A DNA stretch of 64,000 nucleotides from Candidatus Moraniibacteriota bacterium (GTDB lineage: Bacteria; Patescibacteriota; Minisyncoccia; Moranbacterales; UBA1568), in assembly GCA_016699975.1 (NCBI GenBank), contig CP064994.1, positions 1,222-65,221 of the forward strand, written 5' to 3'. Both the position numbers and the translations under genes were made by a program. The notes beneath the pieces are model-generated. The model was not told where the DNA came from. It worked only from the letters and a program-made list of their open reading frames with translations, and did no database searches. This document shows, in pieces, positions 31,159 through 64,000 of this stretch (the stretch's first letter is position 1; every line of letters begins with the position of its first letter).

Positions 31159-31170
31159 TAATAAGAGAGA

Positions 31171-32227: not shown

Positions 32228-33052
32228 TCAAAACCATGACGGCAGCCACCGCTTCACCGTGGCGCGAAACACAATGGCACTCGTACTGAAAAGTGTTTCA
32301 CATTCCGAAACAGTGTGCGTGCGATCGACACCAACGCGCGGCACTCTGAAAGGATCAATCCCTGGCTCCACGAATCCGTCATCCATAGAAAGCGCGAGCA
32401 AAAATCCAGCATCTCGAAGCGCGCGGCGCACAACTTTTGTTGAACGTCCTCGCGGATACGCGAAGAAGCGAATGGGAACTCCCACTTCCGACTCAAGCAT
32501 GCGCTTTGCACCAACAGTTTCCTGAGCCACCTGCTTTGAAGATAAGGCCCACATGTCCCGGTGAGTCGCACTGTGGCAACCAATCTCCCAACCTGATTTG
32601 GCGAGAAATCGCAACTCCTCCGTACCGAGAAACGCGCGATCAGTTCCGAGTTCGCTCGTGTCGGCATGCGCGCGATCGGCAAGTGGAAAAACACTGGGTG
32701 TCACGCCGGAATCGCGAAGAAAATCGAAAACGTCGAGAATATCTCGGTAACCATCATCAAAACACAAGACGAATGAAGGTTCCGTAAAAGGTGCCTCTCC
32801 TGAAATGTGTCGCGCGAGTTCGGACAGAGACCGAGGTTTTCGTTTCCGGAGAAGACGAGTAATTTGTTGTTCGAAAGAAGCGCGATCGATACTATACCGC
32901 CAAGAATCTTCCGCAATACTGTGATAGGCAAAGACAACGACCCGCGGTTCGGGAATGCGAAAAACACGATCGAAAATTGTGAACATTCGATAGGCGATTC
33001 TTCGAAGACCAGAAAAAAGTTTCGTGCGAAATGACATAGTGTCCTTCCTCAT
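32228..33052 (-). CDS. polysaccharide deacetylase (NodB/CE4 family)
   Basis: VLCFDDGYRD (motif 1 D-D), CHSATHRD (His motif), FFAYPRGRS and the beta/alpha barrel order of CE4. Confidence 0.75.
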   Translation of the reverse strand: MRKDTMSFRTKLFSGLRRIAYRMFTIFDRVFRIPEPRVVVFAYHSIAEDSWRYSIDRASFEQQITRLLRKRKPRSLSELARHISGEAPFTEPSFVLCFDDGYRDILDVFDFLRDSGVTPSVFPLADRAHADTSELGTDRAFLGTEELRFLAKSGWEIGCHSATHRDMWALSSKQVAQETVGAKRMLESEVGVPIRFFAYPRGRSTKVVRRALRDAGFLLALSMDDGFVEPGIDPFRVPRVGVDRTHTVSECETLFSTSAIVFRATVKRWLPSWF

Positions 33053-33960: not shown

Positions 33961-36900
33961 ACTTCGTTGTGCTTTGCGAATACCGCAGAAAACAATTGCT
34001 TACTCGACACGTCCCAATCGAAACCTTCCGCCCACTCGCGCGCCTCACGATTCATGCCGAGTCGAAGTTCCCGATCGCGAATAAGCAAGAGCATTTTTTC
34101 TGCGAAGAGATCGACATCACCGTACGGAATCAAAAACCCAGACTGAGTGTTGACCGAATCTCGCAGCCCCGGCACATCTGAGGCAATGACCGGCGTACCG
34201 CATGCATTCGCTTCGATTGAGACAATACCCCACCCTTCCATTTTTGACGGATTCACGAGCATCCATGCTTCCCGCAAAAGCCGCTTTTTTATTTCTTCGG
34301 AAACATATCCCAGAAATTCCACATGATTTGTTCCGAGTCGAAGTTCTTCGTAGGCGAGGTATTTAAGAGCCTGCTCTTCGTCACCGTTTCCTGCAATAAC
34401 AAGTCGCGCTTCAGGGCGCTCGGATCGTACCTGGTGAAATGCGCGAAGCAAGATATCAACCGACTTGTAAGCTTTGAGTCGGCCAAGATAGAGAATGAGC
34501 GGTGTCTCTGACTTTCGTTCCGAGGGTACAAATTCGTCGAGCAAAACACCGGGGTGGACAATGCTTACGCCCGCTTTTCCGAGACCGAGCGCGAGCAAAT
34601 CCTCACGACTTGATTCCGAAACAGTCACAAATGGAACATTCGCATACACAATCGGCATGAGCGTTCCCTCAAGAAAGTTCGCGAGGTGAGCGAATGGTTT
34701 CGGGAGATACTGAAAAAAAATCGTTCGATGCACGTGATGAAGAAGGCACACCACCGGTTCCTTCACATAGAGTGGTGTAAAAAATGGTATGCCGTTTTCG
34801 CAATCAATAATCACGTCGTAGCGTCCGCGAAAGCGCGTGAAGTAATACACAAACGCCCACACATACACCAGATAAAATCCGCCGCGGCGCACGATATGAA
34901 TACCGTCTCGGATCTCATGCCGGGGAAGTCGGCCATCATTTCCGGAAAACAGAGTGACAAAATGACCATCCGCGACCCACCGCTTCGCCATTTCCTCTAT
35001 ATACACTTCCGCGCCGCCGCCGTGTTGATGTTTTGTATCGCGCCAGTTCACGATGAGAACGCGTTTCCCGCCTGTGAGTGGTGAGAGTTCCGGGATCTTC
35101 CCGCGAAAGGCATCAAGAAAATCTCGAACACCGCGCTCGAGGAATCGAAATTGCGGTTCGAAAAGATGAAGAAGTTCGAGTATCCCCCACCCCACAAGTC
35201 CCGAAAAAAAGACGGCGTGCGCCACCGCTTCGAGAGAATCGTGGAAGAAAACGATACTCATCACTTCGCCGATCGCCACCAACAACGAGACTCCCACGAA
35301 AATATATTTTTTCTTCGCAAGCTGATACGTCACGATGAGCGTCGAGAGTGTGAAAAAAGCAGCAGAGAGGGTTGAGATGAGGAGGAGGGGTGCCACTTCC
35401 CGCACTTTTTCTCCAAAAAGAAATGGCGCAAAAAATTCTCCGAAGAGTCCGAAAAGAAGTACTCCCAGAATGCACGCCGCCATCGAAAACGCGTAGAGTA
35501 TTCGGAAAACATACCGTGTTCCTTTTTTGAGACCCTTATTTCGTCCAACGAGGGTCATCATGAACATGTTGGGCATGGTTCCGAAGAAGAAAACGATTTT
35601 CCCAACAAGCGACAGGAGCGCGTACCGACCAGCATCGTATTCTGGCAGAAAGTGTTTCGCCAAAAGAACATCGACGGTCGTAAACGTGGCCGTCGAAAGC
35701 GTGAGGAGAAGTGCCGCAACAAAAAACGTGAACGGAAACGCTTCTCGACTTTTTTCAAAGAGGAGCGCGCGCGATACCGAGGGAATGAAAAATCCCGATG
35801 CGACCGCTGCAACAAAAACACTCGCAGGAATAGAAAGATAGGCGAACTCCGCGTATCCGAAGGTCACAAACAAGAAAGCAACAAGAAGTTTCGTAAGCGC
35901 CTCGACAAAAGAAATAACTCCTGCCGCGCGAAAGCGAAGCGATCCTTGTAAGAATCCGAAGTTGCCAAACGAAAAAAGTCCGAGTGAGAGAAGCGGCGCA
36001 AAGGAAATGAGGAGGAAGAGATCGTCGACGTGAAAGAATCGCGCGAGCGTCGGCACGAGAAACAACCACAGCGCACTCAAAAATATCGAAACGATAAGTC
36101 CCGTTCGGAGAACCGAGGCCCACAGTGTACGCGCCTCTTTCGCTCCACACTTCGCGGAAAGAAACGATGTCTCGCGATTGATCATCGTCGAAAAGGGACT
36201 GATGAAAATGAGTGCGAGATACCACAACGTATTGAGGAGCGCGACTGCGCCGAGCGCTTCAAAGGGGAGCGTCCGTCCCAAAAATGCGCTAAAGGTGAAA
36301 TTAAGAACACTGGTCGCTATGATCGCCATCGCAAAAAATCCTTCAGGAGAAGTGAGAAGGCGAAGCATTTTTTGAAAAGAGCGTAAAAGAAAGGTGGGCG
36401 AAGAACTTACCGGAGCCACCTCGGAAATCCGTTCGGGAGACAGAATATTCTGCGACAGAATCGGTGACAAAGATGGGTCTCGTTGCGACAAAGGATCGGG
36501 CGAAGGAGGCAAATCAGCAACTGATTCCTTTCGTTTTTTCTTGAGAAGGTGAAGTCCGTGTGTCGTTTTTTCCCAGTAGTGCGGTTTCACGAGAAGCTGA
36601 TACGCCGCCATCATGGCTGCAAGAGAAACGAGAAGCCAGTAAAAAGGAATGAGAAAAACCCACTTCATGAGCGACCACTTTTCTCGTTTCGCACAGCCGA
36701 TCATGTAGTAGTACATCGCAAGAAAGTTTCCAAAGACGAGCGAAACGACCGCCATATAAAAGACGACACTCGGGTAGAGCGACTCGATTGCGCCCCCTAC
36801 GGAATCGCGAAATGTAAAATAGAGAATCGTTTCGATCCACAGGATAGGATTAATGAGCATGAAGGCGATTTTTCCGCCGACGATGAACTGAAAGAGAAGA

Positions 36901-38915
36901 GCATGAACGCCGTTTTTTCGGAAGAATTCTCCGGGACGACGCATGTGGACGAGATACGTTTGCATGTATCCTTTGATCCAACGGGAGCGCTGTCGAATCC
37001 AATTCCCAACTTTGCTGTTCGCTTCTTCGAGCGTAACGGAATCAATGATCGCCGTGCGAAATCCACGCGTGAAAATTCGCGCGCCCAAATCGCAGTCTTC
37101 CGTCACATTAAACGGATCCCATCCCTCAAGAGCGAGTAAATCTTCGCGACGAAAGTGATTGCTCGTGCCGCCAAGTGGAATCGACGTCGAAACCGACTGA
37201 AGCGCCGGAAGCATGACATCGAACCACAGCGAATACTCCGCCGTAAAAAGACGTGTCAGAATATTTTGATCGACATTGAAATAGTTGAGTTTCGCCTGAA
37301 GACACCACACCGTTCTCGGAAGCGTCTGAAATCCGAGATACGCCTTTTTCAGCTGAGCGGGATCGGGAATATCTTCCGCGTCATAGATCACCACATATTC
37401 CCCCGTCGCAACCGAAAGTCCATAGTTACAGGCTTTTGGTTTTGTCTTCGGTTCCGAATGCGGGACAACCACGATCTTCACAAACGAAGGGAGGGCCATA
37501 GCACGCGCCGCCTCAATCGTTTCACGATCGTTTTCTTCAAGAAGAAGAAGTGCTTCGAGTTTCTCTTTCGGCCATTCCATTTTCTCTATCGCTTCGAGAA
37601 ATCCCGGGAGCACGTGCGCTTCTCGATAGAGTGGGCACAGAACGGAATAGGTGGGAAGCGAATCGTCCGAAATGAGAGCAAGTTCTTCTTTCGTAAAAGA
37701 AATTTCGGGCGGTTTCTTGAGACTCCGCGAGACGAAGAAGAGATTAAAGAGTACATCAAAAAAGTAAATGCCGGTCAGGATGGCGGTAACCGTAATAAGC
37801 GTCCCGAGCGGAAAGAAAACGAGGCCACCAACAAAGAGAAAAACCAGAAGGAAAAGGAGGGCCTTTTGCCACAAAAGAAACGTGTGCAGCGCGGAAAATT
37901 CATGGGACAGCGTCGAGTGGGTAATGAATCGCTTCCTCGCATGAAGAACGCCCGCACCAATCATGCTCCGACCTGAATTCCCCTGCTCGGCCGGCATTAT
38001 GTGAAACGGAAGAAGGGAGCGGAATCGGAGACGAATTGCATTCCAACCAATCTCTCGGATTGCTTTCCCGAGAACGATTTTGGATTCGCCGGCCATGCGC
38101 TCCGAGAAAGTGATATCGTGCCCTCCAATGTGGTAGCCGTAGTGACGCGCGGTACGCAAAAATTCGAGATCGAATGTCCACGGATCGGGCGCGATGCGCA
38201 CTTCGCGCGCAATGGTGGAACGAAAAACCTTGAGGCCCGATTGTACGTCAACATCAAATCCGTGAAGAAGTTTCGAAAACACGAAAGCGAATCCGCGACT
38301 CGACAATTTCCGCACAAAACTCGTTTCACGTTCGACTCGATTCGCAACCACGATATCGAGTCCTTCGGAGAGTTTCTGCACCATGGCGGGAATCGCTTCG
38401 GGTGGATACTGCAAGTCCGCATCGATCATCGCTATCATCTCGAATCGAGCATGTTCGAATCCTTCAAGAATCGAAAACGCTTTTCCGGGTCTCCCCTTTT
38501 TGACATGCAAAAAAACCGGGAATTGGTTTTTCAACTTCTCGATTTGGTCGGTGGTTCCATCGCTTGAGTGATCATCGATCACGTGAATTTCATATTCAAT
38601 TCCCGCGCCACGAATCGACGCGTCAAGACGACGGATGAGTTCCGCTATATTGCCCGCTTCGTTCAAGGTCGGTACTAAGATCGAAAGGCGTTTCTTGTCC
38701 ATCATATTTTTTGCGAGCTGCCGTTTCGCTTGAGTAAGGAAAGACTCTTCCTCGTACGAAGAACGAGAAAGAGTCCGTCTTTTCCCCAAGCGACCAGCGA
38801 GTGGCCCGTACATAAATGCGCGAAATGTCAGCCTAAATGAACACTTGAATTTTGTCAAGAGGACGGGCCCATTGTGACAAGCTCGAGAATCAAGTACGAT
38901 AACGAGAGCAATCAC
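33957..38915 (-). CDS. giant multidomain glycan-synthesis protein: GT2 (Dpm1/GtrB-like) + processive membrane GT2 synthase (QxxRW) + MOP/Wzx-like flippase domain + GT4
   Basis: Single uninterrupted 1652-aa ORF. aa ~75-320: LSILVPTLNEAGNI...IDDHSSDGT...IDADLQYP. aa ~400-760: TM helices then YSVLCPLYREAHV...YDAEDIPDP...TEDCDLG...QRSRWIKGY plus C-terminal TMs. Then a P/S-rich linker (KKKRKESVADLPPSPDPLSQRDPSLSP). aa ~800-1230: 12-14 TM helices with polysaccharide-biosynthesis/MOP-like composition. aa ~1250-1652: GT4 with EGWGIVSIEANACGTPVIASDVPGLRD. Probable true start is MMDKKR (~38705). Confidence 0.75.
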   Translation of the reverse strand: MIALVIVLDSRACHNGPVLLTKFKCSFRLTFRAFMYGPLAGRLGKRRTLSRSSYEEESFLTQAKRQLAKNMMDKKRLSILVPTLNEAGNIAELIRRLDASIRGAGIEYEIHVIDDHSSDGTTDQIEKLKNQFPVFLHVKKGRPGKAFSILEGFEHARFEMIAMIDADLQYPPEAIPAMVQKLSEGLDIVVANRVERETSFVRKLSSRGFAFVFSKLLHGFDVDVQSGLKVFRSTIAREVRIAPDPWTFDLEFLRTARHYGYHIGGHDITFSERMAGESKIVLGKAIREIGWNAIRLRFRSLLPFHIMPAEQGNSGRSMIGAGVLHARKRFITHSTLSHEFSALHTFLLWQKALLFLLVFLFVGGLVFFPLGTLITVTAILTGIYFFDVLFNLFFVSRSLKKPPEISFTKEELALISDDSLPTYSVLCPLYREAHVLPGFLEAIEKMEWPKEKLEALLLLEENDRETIEAARAMALPSFVKIVVVPHSEPKTKPKACNYGLSVATGEYVVIYDAEDIPDPAQLKKAYLGFQTLPRTVWCLQAKLNYFNVDQNILTRLFTAEYSLWFDVMLPALQSVSTSIPLGGTSNHFRREDLLALEGWDPFNVTEDCDLGARIFTRGFRTAIIDSVTLEEANSKVGNWIRQRSRWIKGYMQTYLVHMRRPGEFFRKNGVHALLFQFIVGGKIAFMLINPILWIETILYFTFRDSVGGAIESLYPSVVFYMAVVSLVFGNFLAMYYYMIGCAKREKWSLMKWVFLIPFYWLLVSLAAMMAAYQLLVKPHYWEKTTHGLHLLKKKRKESVADLPPSPDPLSQRDPSLSPILSQNILSPERISEVAPVSSSPTFLLRSFQKMLRLLTSPEGFFAMAIIATSVLNFTFSAFLGRTLPFEALGAVALLNTLWYLALIFISPFSTMINRETSFLSAKCGAKEARTLWASVLRTGLIVSIFLSALWLFLVPTLARFFHVDDLFLLISFAPLLSLGLFSFGNFGFLQGSLRFRAAGVISFVEALTKLLVAFLFVTFGYAEFAYLSIPASVFVAAVASGFFIPSVSRALLFEKSREAFPFTFFVAALLLTLSTATFTTVDVLLAKHFLPEYDAGRYALLSLVGKIVFFFGTMPNMFMMTLVGRNKGLKKGTRYVFRILYAFSMAACILGVLLFGLFGEFFAPFLFGEKVREVAPLLLISTLSAAFFTLSTLIVTYQLAKKKYIFVGVSLLVAIGEVMSIVFFHDSLEAVAHAVFFSGLVGWGILELLHLFEPQFRFLERGVRDFLDAFRGKIPELSPLTGGKRVLIVNWRDTKHQHGGGAEVYIEEMAKRWVADGHFVTLFSGNDGRLPRHEIRDGIHIVRRGGFYLVYVWAFVYYFTRFRGRYDVIIDCENGIPFFTPLYVKEPVVCLLHHVHRTIFFQYLPKPFAHLANFLEGTLMPIVYANVPFVTVSESSREDLLALGLGKAGVSIVHPGVLLDEFVPSERKSETPLILYLGRLKAYKSVDILLRAFHQVRSERPEARLVIAGNGDEEQALKYLAYEELRLGTNHVEFLGYVSEEIKKRLLREAWMLVNPSKMEGWGIVSIEANACGTPVIASDVPGLRDSVNTQSGFLIPYGDVDLFAEKMLLLIRDRELRLGMNREAREWAEGFDWDVSSKQLFSAVFAKHNEV

Positions 38916-49549: not shown

Positions 49550-52137
49550 TCATTCCATCCTCACCAGTTTTTCAAAGAGTCGCTTCGCACCTTCGACGGT
49601 CGCGAGATAGAGAATCGTAATGCCAAGAAGTGCTGCAAAGAGCGCGGGCGGAAGCGGCTCGAAACCAAACACCTTCCCGAACGGCGAGAGCGCAATTGTC
49701 CAGCCAATAAGGAGAATAATCGCGGTATTGAGAATCAGAAACCCGCTCGGCGTACTCCGAAAAAAAGGGATACGCCTCGTTCGAATAATAAAGATAACGA
49801 GAACTTGAGTCGCGAGCGATTCCAAAAACCAGCCGGTCTGAAAGGTGCGTTCCCCAAGATGAAAGACGCCGTACAAAATACCAAAGGTGAGAAAATCAAA
49901 GACCGAACTAATGGTACCGAAGACAAGCATATATCGGCGAATTCCGCGCAGGTTCCACCGCGATGGCTTTCGAATGGAAAGTGTATCGACGCGATCCGTA
50001 GGTAAGCCGATCTGCGCCGCGTCGTAGAGAAAGTTGTTCAATAAAATCTGCTGCGGCGCCATCGGAAGAAACGGCAAAAATGCAGACGCTCCCATCATCG
50101 AAAACATGTTGCCAAAATTCGAGGAGAGCCACATACGAATATACTTGAGCGTGTTCTCAAATGTCTTTCTTCCCTCTTCGATGCCGTCTTTTAAGACAGA
50201 GAAGTTTTTCTCAAGGAGAATAATGTCCGCCGCATCTTTGGCAACGGGGACTGCATTTTCAACGGAGATGCTAACATCGGAAATCTTGAGCGCCGTCACA
50301 TCATTGATGCCATCCCCCATATAACCCACTACGGTCTCGGAATCGTGCGGAGCGCGGCGATGATCCGCTCTTTCTCGGCAGGAGTCACGCGCGCAAATAC
50401 CGTCGTATGGGCAGCGAGCGCCGCCACTTCCGATTCGGAACATCCGTCGATATCTTTTCCAAGTGCGATTCCCTGAACCGGGATACCGATATCGGAACAG
50501 ATTTTTTTGGTGAGGATTTCGCTGTCTCCGGTCAAAATTTTTACGGAGACGCCGCGCTCCGCGAGTTCGGCAATAGTTTGCGCCGCATCTTTCTTGGGCG
50601 GATCAAGAAAAGCGGCAAATCCGACGAACGTCATCCCGGATTCATCCTCGACGCTGTATGTGTAGTCATCCGCGTCCAGCACCTTGGTAGCGATCGCAAG
50701 AACGCGGAATCCTTCCTCGAAAAATCGCTCCGCCATTTTTTCAAGCGTTCGAAGCCGCTCAGGACTGATCGGCACCAGTTTTCCTGCTTCCGAGATCGAC
50801 GAGGCGATGGAGAAAATATGTTCGGGCGCGCCTTTCGTCGTCAGTATTTTTTTCCCCGCACGAGAAACAACGAGCGACTGGCGACGGCGAACGAAATCGA
50901 ACGGCACTTCGTCGACTTTTTCGAACGCGGAAATATCCGGCGTTCCGTGTTCAACAATCGCCCTATCGAGAGGGTTTTTGACTCCCGTCTGAAAGACGCT
51001 GTTCAAAAACGAATAGAGAAACACCTCTTCGGAATCGCGGCCGTCACCGTCAACATGACGCACGAGAGTAATGCGATCTTCGGTTAAGGTTCCCGTCTTA
51101 TCGGTACAGAGAATCGTCATACTGCCGAAATTTTGAATAGACGAGAGCGTCTTCACGACGGCATGTTTTTTCGCCATGCGCACCGATCCGCGCGCGAGAG
51201 AGACTGAGAGCATTACCGGCAAGAGTTCTGGCGTGAGGCCAATCGCGATTGCAATCGAAAATGTGAGCGCGTCCAAAAAATCCCGGCCGAGAAGCGTGTT
51301 CACGATAAGCACGATCCCCACGAGTATGAAATTGAGGCGCATGATAAAGAGACTGAACGATCGGATATGTTTCTCGAAATCCGTTTCCCGCGTCCCACTC
51401 GAAAGTTTTTGCACTATTTTTCCATACTCCGTCTCTTTGCCAGTCGCCAAAACTCGCACCGTTGCAAAACCAGACACAACACTCGTCCCCAAAAATACCC
51501 GATCGAGACGTTCCGAAATCCTCTCTGTTGTCGCTCCATCCGAAAGCGGGCGCTTCTCAACCGGAAATGCTTCTCCCGTAAACGCAGACTGGTTTACAAA
51601 AAAATCGCGTGCCTCAAGAATCTCTCCATCCGCTGCAACAAGACTTCCCGCGGAAAGAAGAAGAATGTCTCCCGGCACTACCCGACGCGCGTCGATCTCA
51701 CACTCTTCGCGATCACGGCGGACACGCGCCAATGTCTTCACCCGTTCCGCCAACTTCACGGATATTTTCTCGGATCGATACGTATTCACGAAGTCGACAA
51801 TGGCAGAGATAAAAACCATCGCCACGATGATTACCGCATTCGTTTTTTCCCCGAGAACGAAAAACGAGGTCCCAGCGATTGCAAGGAGAATAATGAGAAG
51901 CGGGCTGTTAAATTCTTTCAAAAATTCAAGAACCGGTCGAAAGGGCCGAGACTCCGACACCACATTCATTCCGTATTCCAAGAGTCTCTGCTTCGCTTCT
52001 TCAGAGGAGAGTCCCGCTGCCGCATCTATCGCCGTCAATTTCGATTGCTCTTCCTGCGCCATAGGTTTAGTCAAAAGATGTATCGGCAACATTACCGCGC
52101 ACTCCATGTGAAAAGAAAATGACTGCTTTATCCACAA
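49550..52137 (-). CDS. mgtA: Mg2+-importing P-type ATPase (MgtA-like, P3B), split by a frameshift (ORFs 50329..52137 + 49550..50443)
   Basis: N-terminal ORF: ...ICTDKTGTLTEDRI..., KILTGDSEI. C-terminal ORF: MGDGINDVTALKISDVSISV... and C-terminal TM helices. The junction ...AEKERIIAALR|...ETVVGYMGDGINDV falls inside the conserved hinge. Confidence 0.85.
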
Positions 52138-54222: not shown

Positions 54223-54700
54223 ACGCTCCTGAGGACCCGAGAAAAATCATGCACCCCTCACCTCCCACATTCGCCTCACACATTTCTCTTACATTTTTTC
54301 TCGAATTGTCTTGAGAACTGAAACGCTCACAAGAAGAATGGAGGCTGGAGAGGCAAGACGTAACAAGTCAGTAATTTCCAAATGAAAACGACGAAACCAA
54401 GAAGTGGTCCCAAAAATTCGAGCAGATTGAAAACCCCGAACCACAGTACCGTCACAAAAAAGGATTCGTGTTGGCACCTGCATCGACCGCATTTGGTCTA
54501 TTTGCGGGACGTCCGACCGAGAAGTCGGTCAACAAAAGTGCGCAGAAGAAAAATTCCCGCGACGACTAATACCTTTCTCAGTATCGTTTTCATATGAGTG
54601 AAGAAAAAAGTTATCAAAAAAGAGACTCAGCCAAAATTGCACAACATCGATCAGAACGTGAATAGGTTTTCCTCAAGAAAAAACATTTTCCGACAAGGCG

Positions 54701-55551
54701 TTAGAGAGATCGCTTGCGAGGTGATGTGGCGAAGATTGCAACTGCTTCCGCGCCCAAAAAAAGAATGTGCGATGAATAATAAATCCAGAGCAGAATAAGA
54801 AGTATGGAGCCCGCCGCGCCGGAAGAAGAAACCGCGCCGCTTCTTCCCAAGTAAAGGCCGAGCAGGGTTTTGCCGATGACGAAAAGAACAGCCGTAAACA
54901 ACGCGCCGCGGAGAATTGGTTTCCACGAAAAGCGCGTATCCGGAATAAAACGAAAGAGAAGAGCAAAAATGCCAAAGATCAGTAGGAAAGAAAGACATCC
55001 ACTCAGAAGACTCCAGATACCCGCCGGAAATATGGGGAGGAGATAAGAAGCGGAGTCCAACAAAAACTGAGGACTGCGGTAAGAACAAGTGAGACAAGAA
55101 GCAGAAATCCCGTCGCAATCACCATCCCGAAACTGAAAAAGTTTTGTTTCAAAAATCCGAAAATCCCACCTTTTTCTCGGCAATATCAAAGATACGATTC
55201 AGACTGCTTTTGAGTTCCTTGAAGACACTCGCCGCCCCAACAAGCAACAAAACAAATCCAAGAAGAGCGAAGACCCCTCCTTTTTGAAGCCGAGTCGTTC
55301 GAAGCCATCATACTTCTCAATGTCTCTTCTCCTTCTCTTCCCAAGAATGCGCTCGCTTCGGAAAGGACGACCCGTTCCGCTTCCGTCGTCCCAAAAACGA
55401 TGCCAACGATACCAACCAAAATGATAAGAAGTGGAGAAAGCGAAAACACGGCATAATACGAAAGAGCCGCACTCATACGCGACACCTCGTGATCAAGAAA
55501 TCGCGCAAGCATCTCCGAGAAGAATGACCGTATAGAGGCAAAGTATTTCAT
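54701..55551 (-). CDS. yihY: YihY/BrkB-family membrane protein, frameshifted (ORFs 55186..55551 + 54701..55189)
   Basis: MSAALSYYAVFSLSPLLIILVGIVG in the first ORF and ...YYSSHILFLGAEAVAIF in the second correspond to the N- and C-terminal conserved blocks of YihY. Confidence 0.6.
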
Positions 55552-55680
55552 AGAAATATTCTCTTATGAAGCTTTTAATCTCAGCACAAAGATTCTCTCT
55601 CCACCATACTCGGAACCTCCAAAAAAAGAAAGCGGGGACGAATCCCCGCCTTTTAAAAAGGAGTAAAGTGCGCATTGGAG

Positions 55681-56757
55681 TTAGAGAAGCGTCGTCTTTA
55701 CCACCAGTCGCTTCCATGTAGTATTGAGCGGCCAACAGGTCACGAGCGTAGCGCGTGGCACTTCCGACTCCGCAAAAATACGGGCATCGTCAGGAGAAGC
55801 CACGAATTTTTCATCCACACGATACGTATACTCCTGCCGATTTCCATTTTGCTGCGTCAGCACCACTTTGACAGTGTCTCCCGCCTCCAGGTCATTTAAA
55901 TTGCGAAAGATATAATTGTACGCGCCCGGCGCCCAAGCGTAGTTGCTGCTGTGTGCGGTAATCATAGCATTGCCCTTTTGCCCGGGAGTCGCCGTGTCGG
56001 GGTAAAGGACTGCTCCGCGCTCCAAATCTTTCTCGATTGCCGCATCTTCCGTATCTTCGGAAAGAACAATCGGCACGGCTACGTTAATTTTTGAAATGAA
56101 GAGCTCGACTTTCGGACGAGCATCTCCCGGAGCCGAAGGATCGTAGCCGTCTCGAATTTCTTGTCCGTCCGAGAATCCATCTCCGTCAGAATCAAGAACG
56201 ATCGGATTCGTTCCAAACGTGTACTCGTCCCGAGTCACAATTCCGTCTCCGTCTCGATCATCGAGACTCTCGTCTTTTCGAAGAGAAAGTCCGTACTGTT
56301 TCTCCCACTGGTCTGGAATTGCGTTTTCGTTCGTGTCGGCAATACCGGAGCCGTTCGGATTTTGTCCGCGGTCGACTTCCTCGCCATCGTGTTTCCCGTC
56401 CCGGTCAGTATCGGCTTCAAGTGGATTCGTATGGTACAAATATTCGCCAAGCAGATCGAGCCCGTCCTGATCGGCATCAACATAGAGATCCTCCTTCGTC
56501 TTGACGGTAAGGCTATACTGATCAAGCCACTCAGGAGCAATACTAAGGCGCGCATCGTCTTCACGGTCGAGTGTTTTGAGTTGTTCCGCGCGGTTTTTGG
56601 AAACCGTGAAGCTGTCCCGAAAATCGGAAGTCAAGAGCCACAAGCCTCCAAAAAATACTCCTCCAAAAATGAGAACCGTAATCGGAGAAAATCGAAACGG
56701 CTTGCGAGAAAATTCCCGAAACGAAAGAGAGGGATCAATTTCGGAAGAAAATTTCAT
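55681..56757 (-). CDS. sortase-family transpeptidase with Asp-rich calcium-binding-like (thrombospondin type-3-like DxDxDG) linker
   Basis: N-terminal TM anchor; middle DADQDGLDLLGE, DTDRDGKHDGEE, DDRDGDGIVTRDE, DSDGDGFSDGQE repeats; C-terminal catalytic domain with NAMITAHS (His), TLVTCWP (TLxTC Cys) and downstream Arg. Confidence 0.6.
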   Translation of the reverse strand: MKFSSEIDPSLSFREFSRKPFRFSPITVLIFGGVFFGGLWLLTSDFRDSFTVSKNRAEQLKTLDREDDARLSIAPEWLDQYSLTVKTKEDLYVDADQDGLDLLGEYLYHTNPLEADTDRDGKHDGEEVDRGQNPNGSGIADTNENAIPDQWEKQYGLSLRKDESLDDRDGDGIVTRDEYTFGTNPIVLDSDGDGFSDGQEIRDGYDPSAPGDARPKVELFISKINVAVPIVLSEDTEDAAIEKDLERGAVLYPDTATPGQKGNAMITAHSSNYAWAPGAYNYIFRNLNDLEAGDTVKVVLTQQNGNRQEYTYRVDEKFVASPDDARIFAESEVPRATLVTCWPLNTTWKRLVVKTTLL

Positions 56758-56904
56758 AGGCTCAACTCAAAGAGTAATCATCATTCCCTCGAAAGAGCAA
56801 TTGCTACGATAACAGGCGATAATAGCATAGAAATTACTATGTGTCAACACTTTTCGGCAAAGGAAGTCTCTTCCTTGGCTTAGGAAAGCCATGTATAAAC
56901 TTCC

Positions 56905-56948
56905 GAGAAAAAAGAAACCCCTCAGCATTCAGCATTATGCATGAGGGG
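56905..56948 (-). terminator. rho-independent terminator (minus strand) downstream of 57016..57249
   Basis: Plus strand gagaaaaaagaaacccctcagcattcagcattatgcatgagggg. The CCCCUCA/UGAGGGG stem on the minus strand is followed by a UUUCUUUUUUCUC run. Confidence 0.45.
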
Positions 56949-57015
56949 ATAAAAAAGTTCTGAAAACAATACTATAACAAATATAATAATAGTAACTGGA
57001 TTTTTTGGGAAACCT

Positions 57016-57249
57016 CTAAACCACCCGGATCCTGTGCCTCACGACGGGTTTATGCGCGAAACAGAGATCCCCCCCATTGTATCTACTTAATTTTTTTCCA
57101 CATTCCGTGCAGCACCTCTGAGTCCCTCCTCGGGTTATTCCATCTTTCTCTTTCTTCTTGCTCCTTGGCGGTCTCTCAACTAACGAAAAATAATTTGTAT
57201 CAGAATGTCGTAAGCCGTCTCTTGCTCCTCTTATGAAACATCCGCTCAT
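57016..57249 (-). CDS. possible small zinc-ribbon protein (77 aa)
   Basis: CCTECGKKLSRYNGGDLCFAH gives a C-x2-C ... C-x2-H spacing. Has its own downstream terminator. Otherwise weak. Confidence 0.25.
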   Translation of the reverse strand: MSGCFIRGARDGLRHSDTNYFSLVERPPRSKKKEKDGITRGGTQRCCTECGKKLSRYNGGDLCFAHKPVVRHRIRVV

Positions 57250-57504
57250 CTTCTTTACCTCTTTAAAAAAACTTGACTAAAATCCGCCCAGAAAACATAC
57301 GGGGCGACGAGTTGGGAAAGAACGCCCCCACCATAGCAAAGAATGTCAACTTCGTCAATAGTCATCGACACTTTGAAAAAGGTGGCGGTTTGACCGTCAA
57401 GCGCTTCTTTGGTAGCGTGGAGTACTTACGGACACGAAGAGTTGCTTTCTTCCTCTTGCACGTCCGAACGACACCAAAAACCCACCCCTCCCCTTCCTGA
57501 ACAT

Positions 57505-58647
57505 ATGTCACTCCCTCTCGAACTGCAGGTCAAAGAACTTCTCGAAAAATCTTCTTCCGTCCTGATCCTCCTCCCAAGAGAACAAAACGGAGATGCATTT
57601 GGTGCGGCGGCCGGCCTCGGCGCTTTTTTTGAGAAAATAGGAAAGAGCGTCACTCTCTCCGGGGAAGACGCGGAAGATTCATCGAAGCGTTTCGCATTTC
57701 TTCATCCACCCAAAACCGTTGTTCCCACCATTTCCGGTGTTCGAGAATTCATCCTCTCCTTCAACACGAAGCGAAATGACATTGTCTCAGTCCGAAGTGA
57801 ACGAACCGACGATGCCTACAATATCTTCATCACTCCCGAAAAAGGATCGATTGATCCGCGGGACTTCTCGTTCATCCCAGCAAAATTTTCATTCGACTTA
57901 GTCATAGTGACCGGTGCGCCCGACAAAGAATCCCTTGGCCTCATCGCTTCCGAAAATCCCGATATTTTTTACGAGGTGCCCGTCATTACGCTCGACTGCC
58001 GCGCCGAGAGCGAACGATTCGGTCAAGTAAACATCGTCGATGTAACCGCTTCGACGACAAGTGAGGTCGTCACAAAGCTCCTCGAAAAAATCGGCGGGCC
58101 GCACTTCGATGCTCGAGTAGCAGGACTTCTCTTGGGCGGCATCGTCTCGGGCACCGAAAGCTTTCAGAAAGAGACGACGACCCCAGGGGCACTCCATGCC
58201 GCCTCTCAGCTTATGGATCGCGGTGCCGATCAGCACGACATCATTTTTCGCCTAGTGAAAACGCAACCCCTCTCCCTCCTCAAACTCTGGGGGCGCGCCA
58301 TGGCAAACCTCAGATGGGACGATGCAAAAAAAACCATGTGGGCCCAAATTTCCCAAAAAGATGTTGCCGAAACCGGTTCACGACCGACCGACATCCCGCT
58401 CATTCTCGAAAAAATAAAAAGTCATTCATCTCTCGGGAATACCGTCATCATTTTTTCGACCTCTTCCGACAGTCCCGTCGTGGTAACAATAAAGAGTACC
58501 GATTCGGTGCTGGAGACGCTTTCCACCACATTTCCAAACACGCTGCGCCGCGGCGATGTTCTCGCGATTCCCCTGGAGATCACAAGCTTCTCCGATGCGG
58601 AAGCGCTTATTCTCAAAGAAATCCCCACGGAATCATCGGCGAAATAA
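57505..58647 (+). CDS. nrnA: DHH-family phosphoesterase (NrnA-like nanoRNase / pAp phosphatase)
   Basis: VLILLPREQNGDAFGAAAGL (DHH motifs I-II), LLLGGIVSGTESF (motif III-like) and DHHA1-like C-terminal domain. Start placed at MSLPLELQ; the ORF-track Met is at 57409. Confidence 0.65.
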   Translation: MSLPLELQVKELLEKSSSVLILLPREQNGDAFGAAAGLGAFFEKIGKSVTLSGEDAEDSSKRFAFLHPPKTVVPTISGVREFILSFNTKRNDIVSVRSERTDDAYNIFITPEKGSIDPRDFSFIPAKFSFDLVIVTGAPDKESLGLIASENPDIFYEVPVITLDCRAESERFGQVNIVDVTASTTSEVVTKLLEKIGGPHFDARVAGLLLGGIVSGTESFQKETTTPGALHAASQLMDRGADQHDIIFRLVKTQPLSLLKLWGRAMANLRWDDAKKTMWAQISQKDVAETGSRPTDIPLILEKIKSHSSLGNTVIIFSTSSDSPVVVTIKSTDSVLETLSTTFPNTLRRGDVLAIPLEITSFSDAEALILKEIPTESSAK

Positions 58648-59078
58648 ACGAGAAGGGGCGGAGAACCAAAAAAATCGGATCGAAAATACCATTAACAAAA
58701 TAGAGGTCACAAACGTTCATATGTCCCGCGCTCTTCTTAAAAATACCAGACAAGAAAGTGTGAATATTTTTTGAGAAAAGACACAAAAGATCAGCAAAAA
58801 GAACGGCGGATATTCTGGAGAAGCTCAAGCTATTCGAAGAGTAAAAATCTGATACGTGGTTGGAAGAGATTGTTGAGAGAACCTCGGAAAGACCCCTACA
58901 AAAAATTCTTGCCCAGAGAATTTTGCAAAACCAAAAATGGTGCTTGTGCCAGAAGACATGAAGATTGAAATGAGATCAATCTCTCACGTCTTCCTCTCAC
59001 TTATTCTTCGACGCCCGCATGGTATACTGAAGAAAATTGTAGCGAATTTTCGTATGGTAACCGTCGTGACTCGAGGAA

Positions 59079-60750
59079 GTGGAGACGAGCTCCGAAACGA
59101 ACGCCAAGAAAAACCGAAAAATACTCTCGACTCTCAAGCGCTCTTCGGAAGAAAATGAAGCGGCGCTTCTTGCTCATACGGCGCGTCTCCCGTATGTGGA
59201 CCTCCACATTTTTCCGGTTGACTTCGATCGTGTCAGTCTCATCCCCGAACGGGAAGCACGAACCCTCGGAATCGCACTCTTCCACAAAAAGGGTCGGGAA
59301 ATACGCCTTGCCATACAGAATCCCGAAAACCCCGAGGCAGTCGACTTTATTCGACGATTCGAAGAACGAGAAGGAGTATCCGCAAAAATATACGTCGCGT
59401 CGAAGCCATCTCTCGAACACGCGTGGAATGCGTACAAAAAAGCACTCTTTCTCGAATACCTCGATCACCTGAAAGTGAACCTTTCGGAAAATGACCTGGA
59501 AAAATTCGAGGCCGATTTTGGAACGCTTCTCGAACTCAAAGATCGCATCCTAAATATTCCGACGACACAAATCCTCGAAACTGTTCTCTTGGGCGCAATC
59601 AAACTCCGCTCGAGCGACATTCACCTTGAGCCGGAGGAGCACGACGAAATCCGTCTGCGTTACCGTATCGACGGCATCCTTCAGGATATCGGGCGCTTCC
59701 CCGAGAGTATCTATCCGCTTCTCCTCTCTCGCGTCAAAATGCTCGGCAAAATGAAACTGAACGTCCGAGACAAATCCCAAGACGGACATTTCTCGCTCAA
59801 CCTTGATTCGCGAAAGATCGACATTCGCGTCTCGAGCATCCCCGGAAACTACGGCGAGAGTCTGGTCATGCGACTCCTCGACCAAGAAACGGCACTCCAA
59901 GACATAGAAACGCTCGGACTACGCGGCCTTGCTTACGAACAAGTCGAGCGAGCTTTTCAGAAGCCAACCGGCATCATCTTGAACACCGGCCCGACAGGAA
60001 GCGGCAAAACAACCACGCTGTACGCGATCCTTCGCAAATTAAACGACACGAAAACCAAAATCATCACGATCGAAGATCCGATCGAGTATGAAATTCCAAA
60101 CATCACGCAGACGCAGGTGTCGAGAAGTCGAAACTACACGTTTGCCATGGGACTGCGCTCCATCGTTCGCCAGGACCCCGATGTTATTTTGGTCGGTGAA
60201 ATCCGCGACGACGAGACCGCAAATATCGCAATCAACGCTGGCCTCACAGGGCACCTCGTTCTCTCCACTCTCCACACGAATAACGCCGCGGGATCAGTGG
60301 CGCGGCTTAGTTGAGATGGGCGTTCGGCCAAATACTATTCTGAACGCCGTGAATGCCTTCATTGCGCAGCGACTCGTGCGCGTCCTCTGCGAGCACTGCA
60401 AAGAATCCTACGAGCCTGCCCAAGAAACCGCGAACTCACTCAAAGAAATTCTTTCGCTCATTTCACCGAAAGCGAAAATGGAAATTCCGAAAGAGATTTC
60501 TTCACTCTTTCGCGCCAAAGGGTGTGAACGATGCAATGGAACAGGGTACCGCGGACGAATTGGCATCTTCGAAGTCTTGACGATGACTGACCGCATCGTC
60601 GAAAAAATCTCTTCGCTCGCGAGTGAAAACGAAATCATGCGCGAGGCGCTCGAAGACGGCATGGTGACTATGGCGCAAGACGGGATCCTGAAAGCAATCG
60701 AGGGCGTGACGTCCCTCGACGAAGTCTGGCGCGTCACCGGACAGACAGAA
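59079..60750 (+). CDS. pilB: type II/IV secretion-system ATPase PilB/GspE (unit 1, full-length with N1 domain), one frameshift at ~60300
   Basis: GSPII_E_N-like N-domain (PYVDLHIFPVDFDRVSLIPEREA), GILQD, Walker A TGPTGSGKTTTLY, Asp box IITIEDPIEY, Walker B ILVGEIRD, His box TLHTNNAAG. The frame then breaks (CGGCTTAGTTGAG has one extra A) and the C-terminus, including the tetracysteine CEHCK...CERCNGTGY, continues in ORF 60088..62091. Confidence 0.8.
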
Positions 60751-60762
60751 TTTCTCAAAGAG

Positions 60763-62091
60763 ATGTACGACAATCTCATGTCCCAAACGCTTGCGCGCGC
60801 CTTTCCCGTTTCAACAACGATTTTGAACGAATCGCGCGAGAGCCTCAAACAATTTTCGGATTTCGGTGCTCTTGTCGAAAAAGTCGACCAGAGAAGCGTT
60901 CTTAAATATATTTTCGCCGGCGCCCTCCTCACGAATGCAAACGATATTCACATCGAGCCAGAAGAAAATGCCGTCGACATTCGTTTCCGAATTGATGGCA
61001 TTCTGCGAACCGTCGCATCCCTTCCCATGAACGAATACCCGTCCCTCCTCGGCGATATCAAGCTTCTTTCGGGACTCCGTACCGAGGAACGCTCTGGCGT
61101 CCGAGACAGCCGATTCATGGTCAAAACCGAATCGCCGCTCCCCGAAACCAATGAGGAAAAATTCGATATTCGCGTTTCCATTATTACCGGAGGATTCGGC
61201 GAAACAGTCGTTATGCGACTCCTCAGTCGCGGCGCGATCGCTCTTAGCCTCGGGAAACTTGGCATTCGTCCGGAAACGCTCGCACGCATCGAACGCGGCG
61301 CGAGGAAGCCAACCGGCATCATCTTGAATACCGGCCCGACGGGAAGCGGCAAAACAACCACCCTCTACAGCCTCATTGATTCAATCAAAACGCCGGAACT
61401 GAAAATCATTACAGTCGAAGATCCGATCGAATATCAGTTCTCGGGCATTCTCCAAACGCAGGTCAACGAAGAGAGTGGCTATACATTTTCGTCCGCACTG
61501 CGCTCTCTCCTCCGACAGAACCCGAACATTATTATGATCGGCGAAATCCGAGACGACGAAACGGCCGCGATCGCCTTTCAGGCGGCACTCACGGGTCACC
61601 TCGTCATCGCAACCCTTCACACCAATAACGCAGCCGGCAGTATTCCGCGCCTCCTGTCGATGGGAGTACGCCCGGACGACATCGTGAATGCGGGCGGCAC
61701 TTTTATGGCCCAGCGACTGGTCCGTAAACTCTGCGAATGTAAAAAGCGTATCTCCATTACACCGTTCCACCAAGAAACCTTGGAAAAAGTACGGGCACAG
61801 TTTACTCCAGCATCTCACATATCCACTCCGCTCACGCCAGCGGAAGAATGGGCCCCCGTAGGATGCGAGCGCTGCGGCAATTCCGGATACAAAGGACGAC
61901 TCGTTCTCTCAGAAGTACTTGAGATTGATAAAGACATTCAGCACCTCATTATGTCGGGCGCCCTCAATATTGAAATCGAAGAAAAAGCGGTCGAAAACGG
62001 CATGATCACCATGTTGATGGACGGCGTTCTTCGCGCGATCGAGGGTGAAACGTCTTTCGAAGAAGTCTTCCGTGTTGTCACGCCCCAGTAG
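60763..62091 (+). CDS. second PilB/GspE-like ATPase (unit 2, short N-terminus), in-frame with unit 1 with no intervening stop
   Basis: From MYDNLMSQTL: NDIHIEPEEN, Walker A TGPTGSGKTTTLY, VEDPIEY, MIGEIRD, TLHTNNAAG, tetracysteine CECKK...CERCGNSGY, C-terminal EVFRVVTPQ*. About 55% identical to unit 1 across the ATPase core. Confidence 0.65.
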   Translation: MYDNLMSQTLARAFPVSTTILNESRESLKQFSDFGALVEKVDQRSVLKYIFAGALLTNANDIHIEPEENAVDIRFRIDGILRTVASLPMNEYPSLLGDIKLLSGLRTEERSGVRDSRFMVKTESPLPETNEEKFDIRVSIITGGFGETVVMRLLSRGAIALSLGKLGIRPETLARIERGARKPTGIILNTGPTGSGKTTTLYSLIDSIKTPELKIITVEDPIEYQFSGILQTQVNEESGYTFSSALRSLLRQNPNIIMIGEIRDDETAAIAFQAALTGHLVIATLHTNNAAGSIPRLLSMGVRPDDIVNAGGTFMAQRLVRKLCECKKRISITPFHQETLEKVRAQFTPASHISTPLTPAEEWAPVGCERCGNSGYKGRLVLSEVLEIDKDIQHLIMSGALNIEIEEKAVENGMITMLMDGVLRAIEGETSFEEVFRVVTPQ

Positions 62092-62150
62092 AAAAGCAGA
62101 CCAAGAAACGTACCAAAAAAGAGTGGCCCTCACAGAAAAAGAAAACAAAA

Positions 62151-62185
62151 GAAAACGGACATACGCACATGTCCGTTTTTTAAAA
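62151..62185. terminator. rho-independent terminator after pilB tandem (ACGGACAU-acgcac-AUGUCCGU + UUUUU)
   Basis: gaaaacggacatacgcacatgtccgttttttaaaaatatttt. Also terminator-like on the minus strand, for 62274..62495. Confidence 0.6.
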
Positions 62186-62273
62186 ATATTTTACATTACT
62201 GGCTCGCCAGCTCCTTCTCTTCAGGAAGGAGTCTCAGGAAACATCTTTCGAGGAGATCATGTTCGCCATATTC

Positions 62274-62495
62274 TTAAATGAATGACTCTGCCGTTTGCTC
62301 GTGGTCAAAACGTATCCTCTCGATTTCCTCTGAAGAAAACTCTCCATTCAGAAGAGCATACACAAGTGCCGCCGGCCAAAATGTATGATCCGGATAAGTC
62401 CCTTTTTGCACATGCTGTATAAAGCAGACGCGACCAATTCTTTTGAGCTCCTTAACCAAAAAAACGCAAATTTCTTCTTTCGAAACATCCTGCAT
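62274..62495 (-). CDS. hypothetical small protein (73 aa)
   Basis: Non-repetitive composition and a downstream terminator. No domain recognised. Confidence 0.3.
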   Translation of the reverse strand: MQDVSKEEICVFLVKELKRIGRVCFIQHVQKGTYPDHTFWPAALVYALLNGEFSSEEIERIRFDHEQTAESFI

Positions 62496-62672
62496 TTCAA
62501 TCGCAAGAGCAAGAATTCTGGCTAGCTTTTCATTCCAAAGCCAGGGAAACCTGCAAGGACCTGGCGCTGGGTAAAATCTTGCAAGATCAATTTTTGAAAC
62601 TGCTTGCAGAACAATTTCTCAAAGCGGATTTCGAAAATCAACAGATTTCATTACTTCCTCCTACCCAAAAAT

Positions 62673-62700
62673 CGGGCTTTCTATATCGGGCTTTCTATAT
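62673..62700. repeat. 14-bp perfect tandem duplication (cgggctttctatat x2)
   Basis: Read directly from the sequence, in the low-GC region upstream of the IS30 transposase. Confidence 0.8.
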
Positions 62701-62753
62701 AATAGATGAGAAACGCTGGAAGATTGGAAAAGATAAAAAATCACACATCCCCG

Positions 62754-62905
62754 CCGGTCTGTAGACGGATCCTCGAAGAAAAATTCCCCGAGGGAAGGAG
62801 CAGTGTCGAGGAATAGGAGAGCCGAAACCCTCACTACCCGATCTGGGCAAAAAAGCTCCCGGTTTGAGGACAAAAGATAGAAGTCCCCAAGTGTCTACAG
62901 ACCGG
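62754..62905. repeat. perfect 13-bp inverted repeat (ccggtctgtagac / gtctacagaccgg) bracketing a 126-bp segment
   Basis: Read directly; an inner CCUCG/CGAGG hairpin is also present. MITE-like element or long RNA stem. Confidence 0.7.
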
Positions 62906-63073
62906 CGAGTCTGTCGTATTTCGCGAGAAAGAAGGATTGTGAACGAACAAAAACGGCGCGACTGCCCATCCTAGCATGGGTTTTCTTTTTTGTCAACCAG
63001 AGGTAGACTAGGGTGAATTCAAACCCCGAAGCCCCTTTTCTGGTATACTCCGGCGTTAACTTCCAAAAACGCT

Positions 63074-64000
63074 ATGAATATGCCAAAAGGAACGTCCATA
63101 ACCTTCTTTGAACGAGAGCGAATAAGCTTTCTCCGCATGAAGAAAAAGAAAACATGGATCGCGGAGAAACTTGGAAGAGATTACTCCGTCATCAAGCGAG
63201 AGATACAAGATTCGAGTCCGCACCTTCCCTATGTTGCCATCCGAGCTGAAGCGTATGCGGAAAAGACGAAGAAAATACCAACAAAAAGACTGGAAAAATG
63301 GCAAAACGAGAAACTGAAAAAAGTTTGTCGAAAGCGAACTCCTGAAGGGACATTCACCGGAGCAGATAGCCGGCCGGTTGAAAACATCTCCTCCGAAAAT
63401 CTTTCCTCGTGTACGGATACCTCGATAAGTTACGAATCCATCTATGATTACATTTACCGCGGGAAGGAAGGGTCGGCGGATGGTACAAACATCTGCGACG
63501 AAAACAGAAGCGGAGACGACCAAAGTTCTCTCGAAAACCGCGAAAAGAGACGATTCCGGATAGAATACCCATTCACGAAAGACCCGCGGTCATTACCAAG
63601 CGTACACACTTTGGAGACTGGGAAACCGATTCCGTGATATTCTCAAACAGAAGTCAGTACTCCGGTACAGTACGAGCGAAAAAATGAAGCTATGCCGATT
63701 AAAGAAAGTTCCAAACAAAACAGCGGTCGAAAGCGAACGAGCGATACAGGGACATTTCTCTGCTTCCGCAGCAATTGAGGAGAAGTATTACGAGAGATAA
63801 TGGAACGGAGAATGTTTTGCACGGAGAAACGAAACAAAAACTTTCTCTTCCTACTTCTGCGATACCTACAAAAGTTGGCAGAAAGGAGGTGTGGAAAACT
63901 TGAATGGATTGTTACGAGAGTATTTTCCAAGAAATGCCCGTTTGATAAAATTTCCCAAAAAGAAGTTCGGTCAGTTCAGGACAAACTCAACAATCGACCG
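63074..64000 (+). mobile_element. IS30-family transposase gene, partial (runs off window) and disrupted by at least 2 frameshifts
   Basis: N-terminal HTH KGTSITFFERERISFLRMKKKKTWIAEKLGRDYSVIKREI (IS30 pattern LT.EER..I......S.R.IA..LGRS.STISREL). Later, in shifted frames, IHERPAVITKRTHFGDWETDSV (cf. ...ERP..VE.R...GHWEGD) and FCDTYKSWQKGGVENLNGLLREYFPR (cf. [26 protein letters not shown]) and ...QDKLNNRP. No terminal inverted repeats could be defined in-window. Confidence 0.6.

Follow-up and report, generated by a model that had tools for sequence, protein, structure and literature searches.

Two PilB-type ATPase modules in one predicted chain: a tandem motor gene of a Candidatus Moraniibacteriota bacterium and its relatives in Patescibacteria

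In the rings formed by PilB, GspE and PilT, the N2 domain of one subunit packs on the C-terminal domain (CTD) of the adjacent subunit, and how a PilB-type ring coordinates ATP and turns its platform is still argued from symmetric homohexamer structures. The described motors, among them Geobacter PilB (5TSH), Thermus PilF (5OIU) and Vibrio GspE (4KSR), are homohexamers with one module of N2 and C-terminal ATPase domain per chain. Here we describe a gene in a 64,000-nucleotide stretch of a Candidatus Moraniibacteriota genome (GenBank contig CP064994.1, positions 1,222 to 65,221; hereafter the window) whose predicted product has two such modules per chain, and three in one relative, P0011. Each tandem module has the same fold as the described motors (target-normalised TM-score 0.91), is 42% identical to them, and has the Walker A and B motifs, Asp and His boxes and tetracysteine Zn site in common with them. 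An N-terminal N1 domain of GSPII/MshEN type is common as well, with one N1 per two modules in the tandem protein. Unlike the known systems, module 2 has CxC rather than CxxC as its first cysteine pair, and the tandem gene lies away from pilC, pilM and pilin genes.

Thermus thermophilus PilF, the best sequence match in the PDB, is likewise a PilB-type motor enlarged by internal duplication, but it repeats the N-terminal regulatory GSPII domain (three copies, with one ATPase module), whereas the tandem protein repeats the N2-ATPase unit itself. KaiC and p97/NSF/ClpB also carry two RecA-like or AAA-type modules per polypeptide, both of which can be active; they belong to other superfamilies and form stacked rings, whereas PilB-type packing would, by analogy, more naturally place modules side by side. 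The platform protein PilC/GspF (PulF) is itself a tandem internal duplication, three chains giving six domains; a published model sets its trimer beneath the ATPase hexamer (PMC10790770). This membrane protein has an unrelated fold and is a presumed partner, not a homologue, and its gene was not seen near the tandem locus. The preliminary description of this DNA had called a double ATPase unusual for secretion ATPases, and this stands: no two-module structure was found, and no description of tandem PilB, GspE or T2SSE ATPases was found in the full text of open-access papers, an absence that is no proof. The architecture is apparently undescribed in print. The proteins themselves are already in public databases, under generic names.

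In the window as deposited, the gene is seen as two overlapping plus-strand open reading frames (ORFs), 59079–60314 (411 amino acids) and 60088–62091 (667 amino acids). The preliminary description had recognised two PilB/GspE modules in tandem and unseparated by a stop codon, an ORF that crosses from the C-terminus of unit 1 into unit 2, and an N1 domain on unit 1. The frame check, the ORF translation and Pfam agree on all three points: ORF 60088–62091 runs without a stop from the C-terminal part of module 1 (…EVWRVTGQTE) into module 2 (FLKEMYDNLMSQ…), and the MshEN/GSPII match occurs once per chain. The start at 59079 and the unbroken frame did not hold. Joining both ORFs with base 60309 skipped gives a 1,003-amino-acid product. 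The true start is ATG 59054 (MVTVVTRG…), which lies in a third frame, set apart from that of 59079 by two one-base deletions in A-runs; the N-terminus of the relatives reads MVKV…. We delimited the gene by frame analysis, by DNA alignment to an orthologue on contig L001, and by the intact protein P0312 encoded on contig L089. The parts of the gene, with the three one-base errors discussed below, are as follows.

59054–62091, + strand: tandem PilB-type ATPase, whole gene; 1,012 amino acids once three one-base indels are removed; stop codon at 62089–62091
59184–59435, + strand: N1 domain (MshEN/GSPII-E N-terminal type), Pfam PF05157; one per chain
59562–60732, + strand: module 1 (N2 and C-terminal ATPase domain), Pfam T2SSE, residues 162–551, profile positions 8–370 of 370
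60736–60804, + strand: junction peptide TGQTEFLKEMYDNLMSQTLARAF, from module 1 to module 2; conserved, frame stop-free
60823–62076, + strand: module 2 (three lead-in helices, N2 and C-terminal ATPase domain), by BLASTP against module 1 and PDB phmmer (PilF 5oiu, 3.9e-90)
59109–59121, + strand: two homopolymer undercalls, A5 at 59109–59113 and A5 at 59117–59121, each A6 in L089
60309, + strand: extra A (CTT-A-GTT) splitting module 1 between ORFs 59079–60314 and 60088–62091; absent from L001 and L089

We hold with high confidence that this is a single gene, 59054–62091, of about 1,012 codons, intact and of PilB type, laid out as an N1 domain followed by two linker-N2-ATPase units. The N1 match (E=2.5e-8, 34.2 bits against a cut-off of 23.1) covers residues 36–119 of the 1,003-amino-acid reconstruction, and module 2 has no match to PF05157. 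By eye, no cyclic di-GMP MshEN motif of the form RLGxx(L/V/I)(L/V/I)xxG… is seen in the first 35 residues (MVTVVTRGSGDELRNERQEKTEKILSTLKRSSEEN). Walker A lies at 59988–60017 in module 1 and at 61333–61362 in module 2, and the Zn cysteines read CEHC…CERC and CEC…CERC, respectively. The junction, VTGQTEFL..Y..LM.Q, is conserved on par with the domains (mean orthologue identity 62%), with G564, F568, L569 and Y573 invariant in an alignment of 77 sequences; in the AlphaFold2 model it is a helix with a predicted local distance difference test (pLDDT) score below 50.

The frame breaks were examined base by base. Module 1 shifts from frame 0 (59079–60314), which ends …NNAAGSVARLS and a stop, to frame 1 at the extra A at 60309. 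Frame 1 carries on as VEMGVRP…, matching SIPRLLSMGVRP of module 2 with length unchanged, and dropping the A restores SVARLVEMGVRP, which aligns to the same module 2 peptide. At the N-terminus, the two A-run undercalls together shift the frame of ATG 59054 into that of 59079; the corrected peptide, ERQEKTEKILSTLKR, equals that of P0312 and is of the same length in P0001 and P0002. When the window is aligned to L001 (CP064989.1, an intact orthologue at 74% DNA identity), gaps fall in both A-runs and the extra base falls at 60309.

Contig L089 (8,349 bp) comes from an independent short-read Logan assembly of SRR11674037. It is 99.9% identical to window positions 54665–63012, from which it differs by seven one-base indels, six of them in homopolymers, and two substitutions. 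Besides the three indels in the tandem gene, the differences are these.

55061: one A short in the window (A5 against A6 in L089)
55159: one A short in the window (A4 against A5)
55281: one surplus T in the window (T5 against T4)
57069: one surplus C in the window (C7 against C6)
57639: substitution, A in the window and C in L089
60341: substitution, T in the window and C in L089

The tandem protein and the DHH and BrkB proteins are all encoded intact on L089; in the window, BrkB is in at least three pieces. Frame-split genes in the window include BrkB/YihY (54651–55551), MurA (8395–10001), UvrC (9775–11102), Obg (18865–19865) and a P-type ATPase (49550–52137), and the MurA break resembles a G5 to G4 undercall at about 8935–8940. 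Because L089 lacks all three breaks, and because other genes in the window are split likewise, the breaks in the tandem gene are consensus indel errors, which amount to about 0.8 per kb in the stretch covered by L089, and are due neither to pseudogenisation nor to programmed frameshifting. The whole assembly appears to be rich in indels, and oddities at the level of ORFs in this window call for an indel check first. We take the QQS and CP0649xx records to be the Nanopore-based set of metagenome-assembled genomes (MAGs) from activated sludge of Singleton et al. 2021, which would fit the error profile.

It is very unlikely that the breaks are genuine and that the locus is a fresh pseudogene or makes two polypeptides of 411 and 591 amino acids, as annotated in GenBank. 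The deposited sequence does contain them and 60309 is a non-homopolymer site, but L089, independent and 99.9% identical, has none of the three, and six of the seven indel differences over 8.3 kb are changes in homopolymer length. BrkB is broken in the same way and intact in L089; Obg, MurA, UvrC and others in the window are split alike; and the 593 codons past the break have accumulated no stops. We rejected a pseudogene on the in-frame orthologues and L089 and on this window-wide pattern. A programmed +1 ribosomal frameshift at 60306–60314 (CTT AGT TGA) would also unite both ORFs, and a zero-frame stop codon does follow closely behind the site. The site is, however, unlike the CUU-UGA slippery pattern of RF2-type shifts, and the orthologues and L089 are plainly in frame here; we rejected this explanation too, which we consider to have next to no chance of being right. 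The organism is thus predicted to make an intact tandem protein. The source record shows the cost of such errors for annotation: homopolymer errors made one gene into two proteins, QQS20981.1 (411 amino acids, window 59079–60314) and QQS20982.1 (591 amino acids, 60316–62091), both named 'Flp pilus assembly complex ATPase component TadA'. The 90%-identity cluster that holds both also includes P0312 (1,051 amino acids).

Both modules bear the full set of motifs. Pfam T2SSE (PF00437) matches in two stretches (737 bits against a cut-off of 24.9), and each module has Walker A (GPTGSGKTTT), an Asp box (EDPIEY), Walker B (GEIRDDET), a His box (LTGHLV..TLHTN) and four cysteines. The preliminary description had listed these boxes and a tetracysteine in both units and all were found, with the first cysteine pair CxxC in module 1 and CxC in module 2 and the second pair CxxC in both. 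Two alignments, of 77 and 118 sequences, show no or almost no variation, in either module, at Walker A, EDPxE, GEhRD and its Glu, the His box TGH…H.N, the N2 arginines (R.R.DG) and the eight Zn cysteines. The cysteines, in P0001 numbering C447, C450, C492 and C495 in module 1 and C895, C897, C939 and C942 in module 2, are invariant. In deeper lineages the P-loop of module 2 varies (GPTGAGKT, GPTSAGKT, GPTSSGKT), with GxxxxGK[ST] retained. Identity between orthologues is 67% and 69% for the N2 domains of modules 1 and 2 and 73% and 66% for their CTDs, against 44% (N2) and 52% (CTD) between paralogues. Since orthologue identity (66–73%) exceeds paralogue identity, each module is judged to have a conserved identity of its own.

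From these motifs, both modules look active. One dead module was considered and rejected for the family, as GxxxxGK[ST] is present in both modules nearly everywhere. The single exception among the deep tandem representatives is P0140 (1,047 amino acids), where the P-loop of module 1 reads GPTGSGTT, with the lysine lost, and its Asp box reads EDPVQLP, next to an intact module 2. In at least this lineage, module 1 may have become a non-catalytic partner.

As to class, phmmer against the PDB gave 1e-90 to 1e-75 for PilF, PilB and GspE versus about 1e-29 for PilT, and Foldseek gave 4e-45 for PilF, PilB and GspE versus about 1e-22 for PilT. The AlphaFold2 model of the orthologue P0001 has a pLDDT of 79.7; in it, each module fits onto PilF/PilB at a target-normalised TM-score of 0.91. 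Foldseek found no solved chain that covers both modules (query-normalised TM-score at most 0.36). By sequence and by model, each module is of the PilB/GspE assembly-ATPase type and not PilT. A PilB-PilT division of labour was rejected, both modules being of PilB type with Zn sites. The whole tandem protein passes NCBIfam TIGR02538 (type IV-A PilB; 831 against 676) and TIGR02533 (GspE; 862 against 630) only through summing two modules, a second pitfall for annotation, where equivalog cut-offs are passed merely by added scores. The sole TadA-family model to match, TIGR03819 (TadA-family conjugal-transfer ATPase), scored 91 bits against a cut-off of 373, outscored about tenfold by the PilB and GspE models, and the GenBank name 'TadA' is unsupported.

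We next asked how old and how widespread the fusion is. A full-length search of 5.8 billion proteins listed 120 matches, 117 of which are 1,005–1,025 amino acids long and 53–80% identical to the query at 96–100% query coverage; these are clusters at 90% identity, and those with names come from Candidatus Moraniibacteriota/Moranbacteria or Patescibacteria. We also searched 1.84 billion cluster representatives with a 160-amino-acid query that spans the junction alone. About 15 full-length representatives (978–1,047 amino acids) of clusters at 50% identity align to it in one unbroken stretch in the middle of the protein, at identities down to 32%; the members with names are Parcubacteria group GW2011_GWA2_47_8 and Candidatus Paceibacterota. 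In GTDB species genomes, ORFs with the tandem layout occur in Moraniibacteriota, Parcubacteria, Falkowbacteria and unclassified Patescibacteria MAGs, and matches outside the candidate phyla radiation (CPR) were single-module. These searches answer in the affirmative whether CPR relatives have pilB-pilB fusions, a question that the preliminary description had posed, and the fusion cannot be chance because the stop-free junction recurs in more than 117 independent protein clusters. Taken together, the comparisons indicate that the double, occasionally triple, PilB-type motor is genuine, old and widespread in Patescibacteria.

Aligning unit against unit, also proposed at the outset, gave 45% protein identity over 427 amino acids by BLASTP. 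DNA identity between modules is about 70% outside a segment at the P-loop, with direct repeats at a spacing of 1,345 nt. The repeat unit is 448 codons and begins immediately after N1, so that the N1-N2 linker is included. In a neighbour-joining tree of module cores, all unit-1 sequences form one clade and all unit-2 sequences its sister clade, with parallel internal topology. Such a tree speaks for a single ancient duplication and fusion of the 448-codon linker-N2-CTD unit, in an ancestor within Patescibacteria, after which the gene was passed on vertically with both modules under constraint.

The preliminary description had offered a genuine fusion or a recent duplication with a mutated stop; the first is upheld by the orthologue clusters and by L089, which is stop-free and unshifted, and the second fails at 45% identity. 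The direct repeats and the P-loop segment, 64 nt at 94% identity between modules, are what adjacent pilB paralogues recently merged by stop loss, or a misassembled repeat, would offer in their favour. Against this, the modules are far diverged beyond the P-loop, the stop-free junction and its sequence are kept across the clusters and in many independent assemblies, and unit-1 and unit-2 fall into separate deep clades. A collapsed repeat, likewise raised earlier, meets the same divergence, and each module is nearer to its orthologue elsewhere than to its partner. We rejected both on the protein identity and clade structure, and the chance that either is correct is vanishingly small.

The P-loop segment itself (window 59960–60023 and 61305–61368, encoding KPTGIILNTGPTGSGKTTTLY) is 68–79% identical between modules in seven other genomes; in this lineage, the two modules may have undergone gene conversion over this short tract.

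Other arrangements of the same module were also found. P0011 (L003:10001–14383, JGI metagenome 3300022698) has three modules in 1,460 amino acids, again beside TsaE and DHH genes. The middle one is a chimera whose N2 part is 65–80% identical to module 3 and whose C-terminal part is nearer module 1, which fits an internal duplication from mid-CTD to mid-CTD; it is not an assembly artefact, judging by modules 2 and 3 being only 58% identical. In a Candidatus Portnoybacteria MAG (L027:9542–11287), a single-module PilB of 582 amino acids falls inside the unit-1 clade of the tree, with no second module in its 21-kb locus, and may represent secondary loss or fission of module 2. Eleven PilB-like representatives of 700–850 amino acids (P0161, P0201, P0230, P0236, P0238, P0242, P0250, P0251, P0258, P0260 and P0270) reach the PilB C-terminus at about 560–600 and extend 150–300 residues past it; these would be other C-terminal extensions or fusions of PilB-type ATPases.

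What form would such a protein take? Beyond the double-module architecture, the biology is what we infer. We propose that both modules would hydrolyse ATP and that three chains would close one ring of six modules, in which non-identical positions alternate and only three N1 domains are present. This trimer of tandems would drive, via the platform protein PilC, a filament machine resembling a type IV pilus or a competence system, and it would pair 3:3 with a trimeric, internally duplicated platform protein. Linked modules would lie side by side, with three chains closing the ring, because N2 packs on the neighbour's CTD. In the published PulF3:PulE6 model, PulF is trimeric and internally duplicated and its Cyto1 and Cyto2 domains each bind one N2 domain (PMC10790770). 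Alternate ATPase positions would already be non-equivalent there, since Cyto1 and Cyto2 alternate, and a tandem ATPase could make this difference permanent in a 3:3 complex. From sequence and homology, we put the ring and the pilus mechanism jointly at about an even chance. Somewhat more tentatively, we suggest that a Moranbacteria/Paceibacteria lineage swapped a homohexameric motor for covalent concatemers, doublets working as a trimer and, in one lineage, triplets as a dimer, in which ring positions became distinct and specialised, for example with one N2 type per cytoplasmic domain of trimeric PilC.

Tandem ATPase domains of other ring families form stacks, and the tandem protein might do the same: six chains would place module 1 and module 2 each in a hexameric ring of its own, with 12 ATPase sites, like KaiC or the two-tier AAA+ proteins p97 and ClpB. 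One ring would be the motor and the other a regulator or scaffold. Both modules are complete and separately conserved, as such a stack would allow, and the junction of about 25 amino acids with the three lead-in helices could bridge two tiers. N2-on-neighbour packing (PMC10790770), however, would set linked modules side by side, and the three-module relative would need three tiers, whereas it fits a six-module ring as a dimer. We consider the stacked motor unlikely. The single ring is favoured because two- and three-module forms exist and 2 and 3 divide 6, because the linker between modules and the flexible N1-N2 linker are homologous, and because the PulF3:PulE6 model fits a tandem trimer 3:3 (PMC10790770).

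Were the concatemer ring true, each module would be fixed to a ring position, single positions could be mutated without engineered linked subunits, and the protein would be a natural counterpart of the engineered linked-subunit rings used on other ring motors. Tandem and triple concatemers would also bear on the proposed 6:3 ATPase:platform models. The motor occurs in ultrasmall bacteria of a large group, most of them not in culture, and pili in these bacteria are thought to serve host attachment and DNA uptake.

The gene's surroundings do not include a pilus cluster. The preliminary description had noted that pilC, pilM and pilin genes were not adjacent, and wider scans agree: T2SSF, PilM, PilN and peptidase A24 were absent from about 40 ORFs scanned across the window, and the prepilin motif G-F-[ST]-L-x-E occurred in none of its frames. 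Because neither the window nor the flanks of five relatives hold pilus genes, the link to a pilus machine comes from homology. The same description had placed only a sortase upstream; the sortase is confirmed, but 'only' is not, for a gene of the DHH family lies between.

57505–58647, + strand: DHH-family phosphoesterase gene, upstream neighbour, by tblastn to the L001 DHH gene (63% identity)
55681–56757, − strand: sortase

The DHH gene (about 375–383 amino acids; nameless in NCBIfam) lies directly upstream in Moranbacteria and Parcubacteria loci (L001:8811–9947, L003:8782–9909, L004:8792–9919 and L006:8823–9974), where the gap to the tandem gene is usually 27–92 nt; it is about 400 nt in the window. 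Five related loci have TsaE, DHH directly upstream and RuvB downstream, with YebC, RuvC, PolA, DnaN and DnaA close by, and RuvB adjoins the tandem gene also in L009–L012 and L022. In the window, the relatives' RuvB place is taken by an ORF (63074–63637, + strand) with a weak helix-turn-helix (HTH_38) match, possibly a piece of a transposase gene and the mark of a rearrangement on this side of the tandem gene.

This setting raises the question of whether the tandem ATPase was recruited elsewhere, for example to DNA uptake or processing without a classical pilus machine. The TsaE-DHH-tandem-RuvB synteny is conserved with the replication and recombination genes named above nearby, and the window and the 10-kb flanks of five loci are free of pilus genes. 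On the other side, all PilB/GspE hallmarks are kept, including the N1 domain and the Zn motif, which in characterised systems serve docking to the machine; origin-proximal housekeeping surroundings are weak functional evidence; and in other bacteria motor genes can lie apart from pilin genes. A non-pilus role is in our view improbable.

Taken as a whole, the account given here, a double-module gene, consensus errors, and a six-module ring working in a pilus machine, is quite probably the best explanation of the locus. Several points weigh against it. The extra A at 60309 lies outside a homopolymer and alone could be a real strain difference, and the tree of module cores is without support values. 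Module 2 alone scores 379 and 400 bits, under the NCBIfam cut-offs of 676 (PilB) and 630 (GspE). The AlphaFold2 monomer has a predicted TM-score (pTM) of 0.51 and a low-confidence junction, so that the relative placement of the modules is unreliable. Genes for PilC, PilM, PilN, prepilin and PilT were not found in the window, nor were pilus genes found within 10 kb in L001, L003, L004, L006 and L007.

Two further features of the window were noted, the first just past the tandem gene.

62152–62179, no strand assigned: hairpin of 12 bp, 60 nt past the stop codon; a possible terminator, by consensus scan alone

The regional count of terminator-like sites around this hairpin is not above that of shuffled sequence. 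Elsewhere in the window, an ORF of 1,652 amino acids (33957–38915, − strand) contains three glycosyltransferase domains, two of GT2 type and one of GT4/GT1 type, and stands at the head of a run of minus-strand genes (28139–33960) made up of one GT2 gene, one for a polysaccharide deacetylase, and genes without assigned function. The 28–32 kb part of this glycosyltransferase stretch has an unusually high AT skew of 0.28–0.36.

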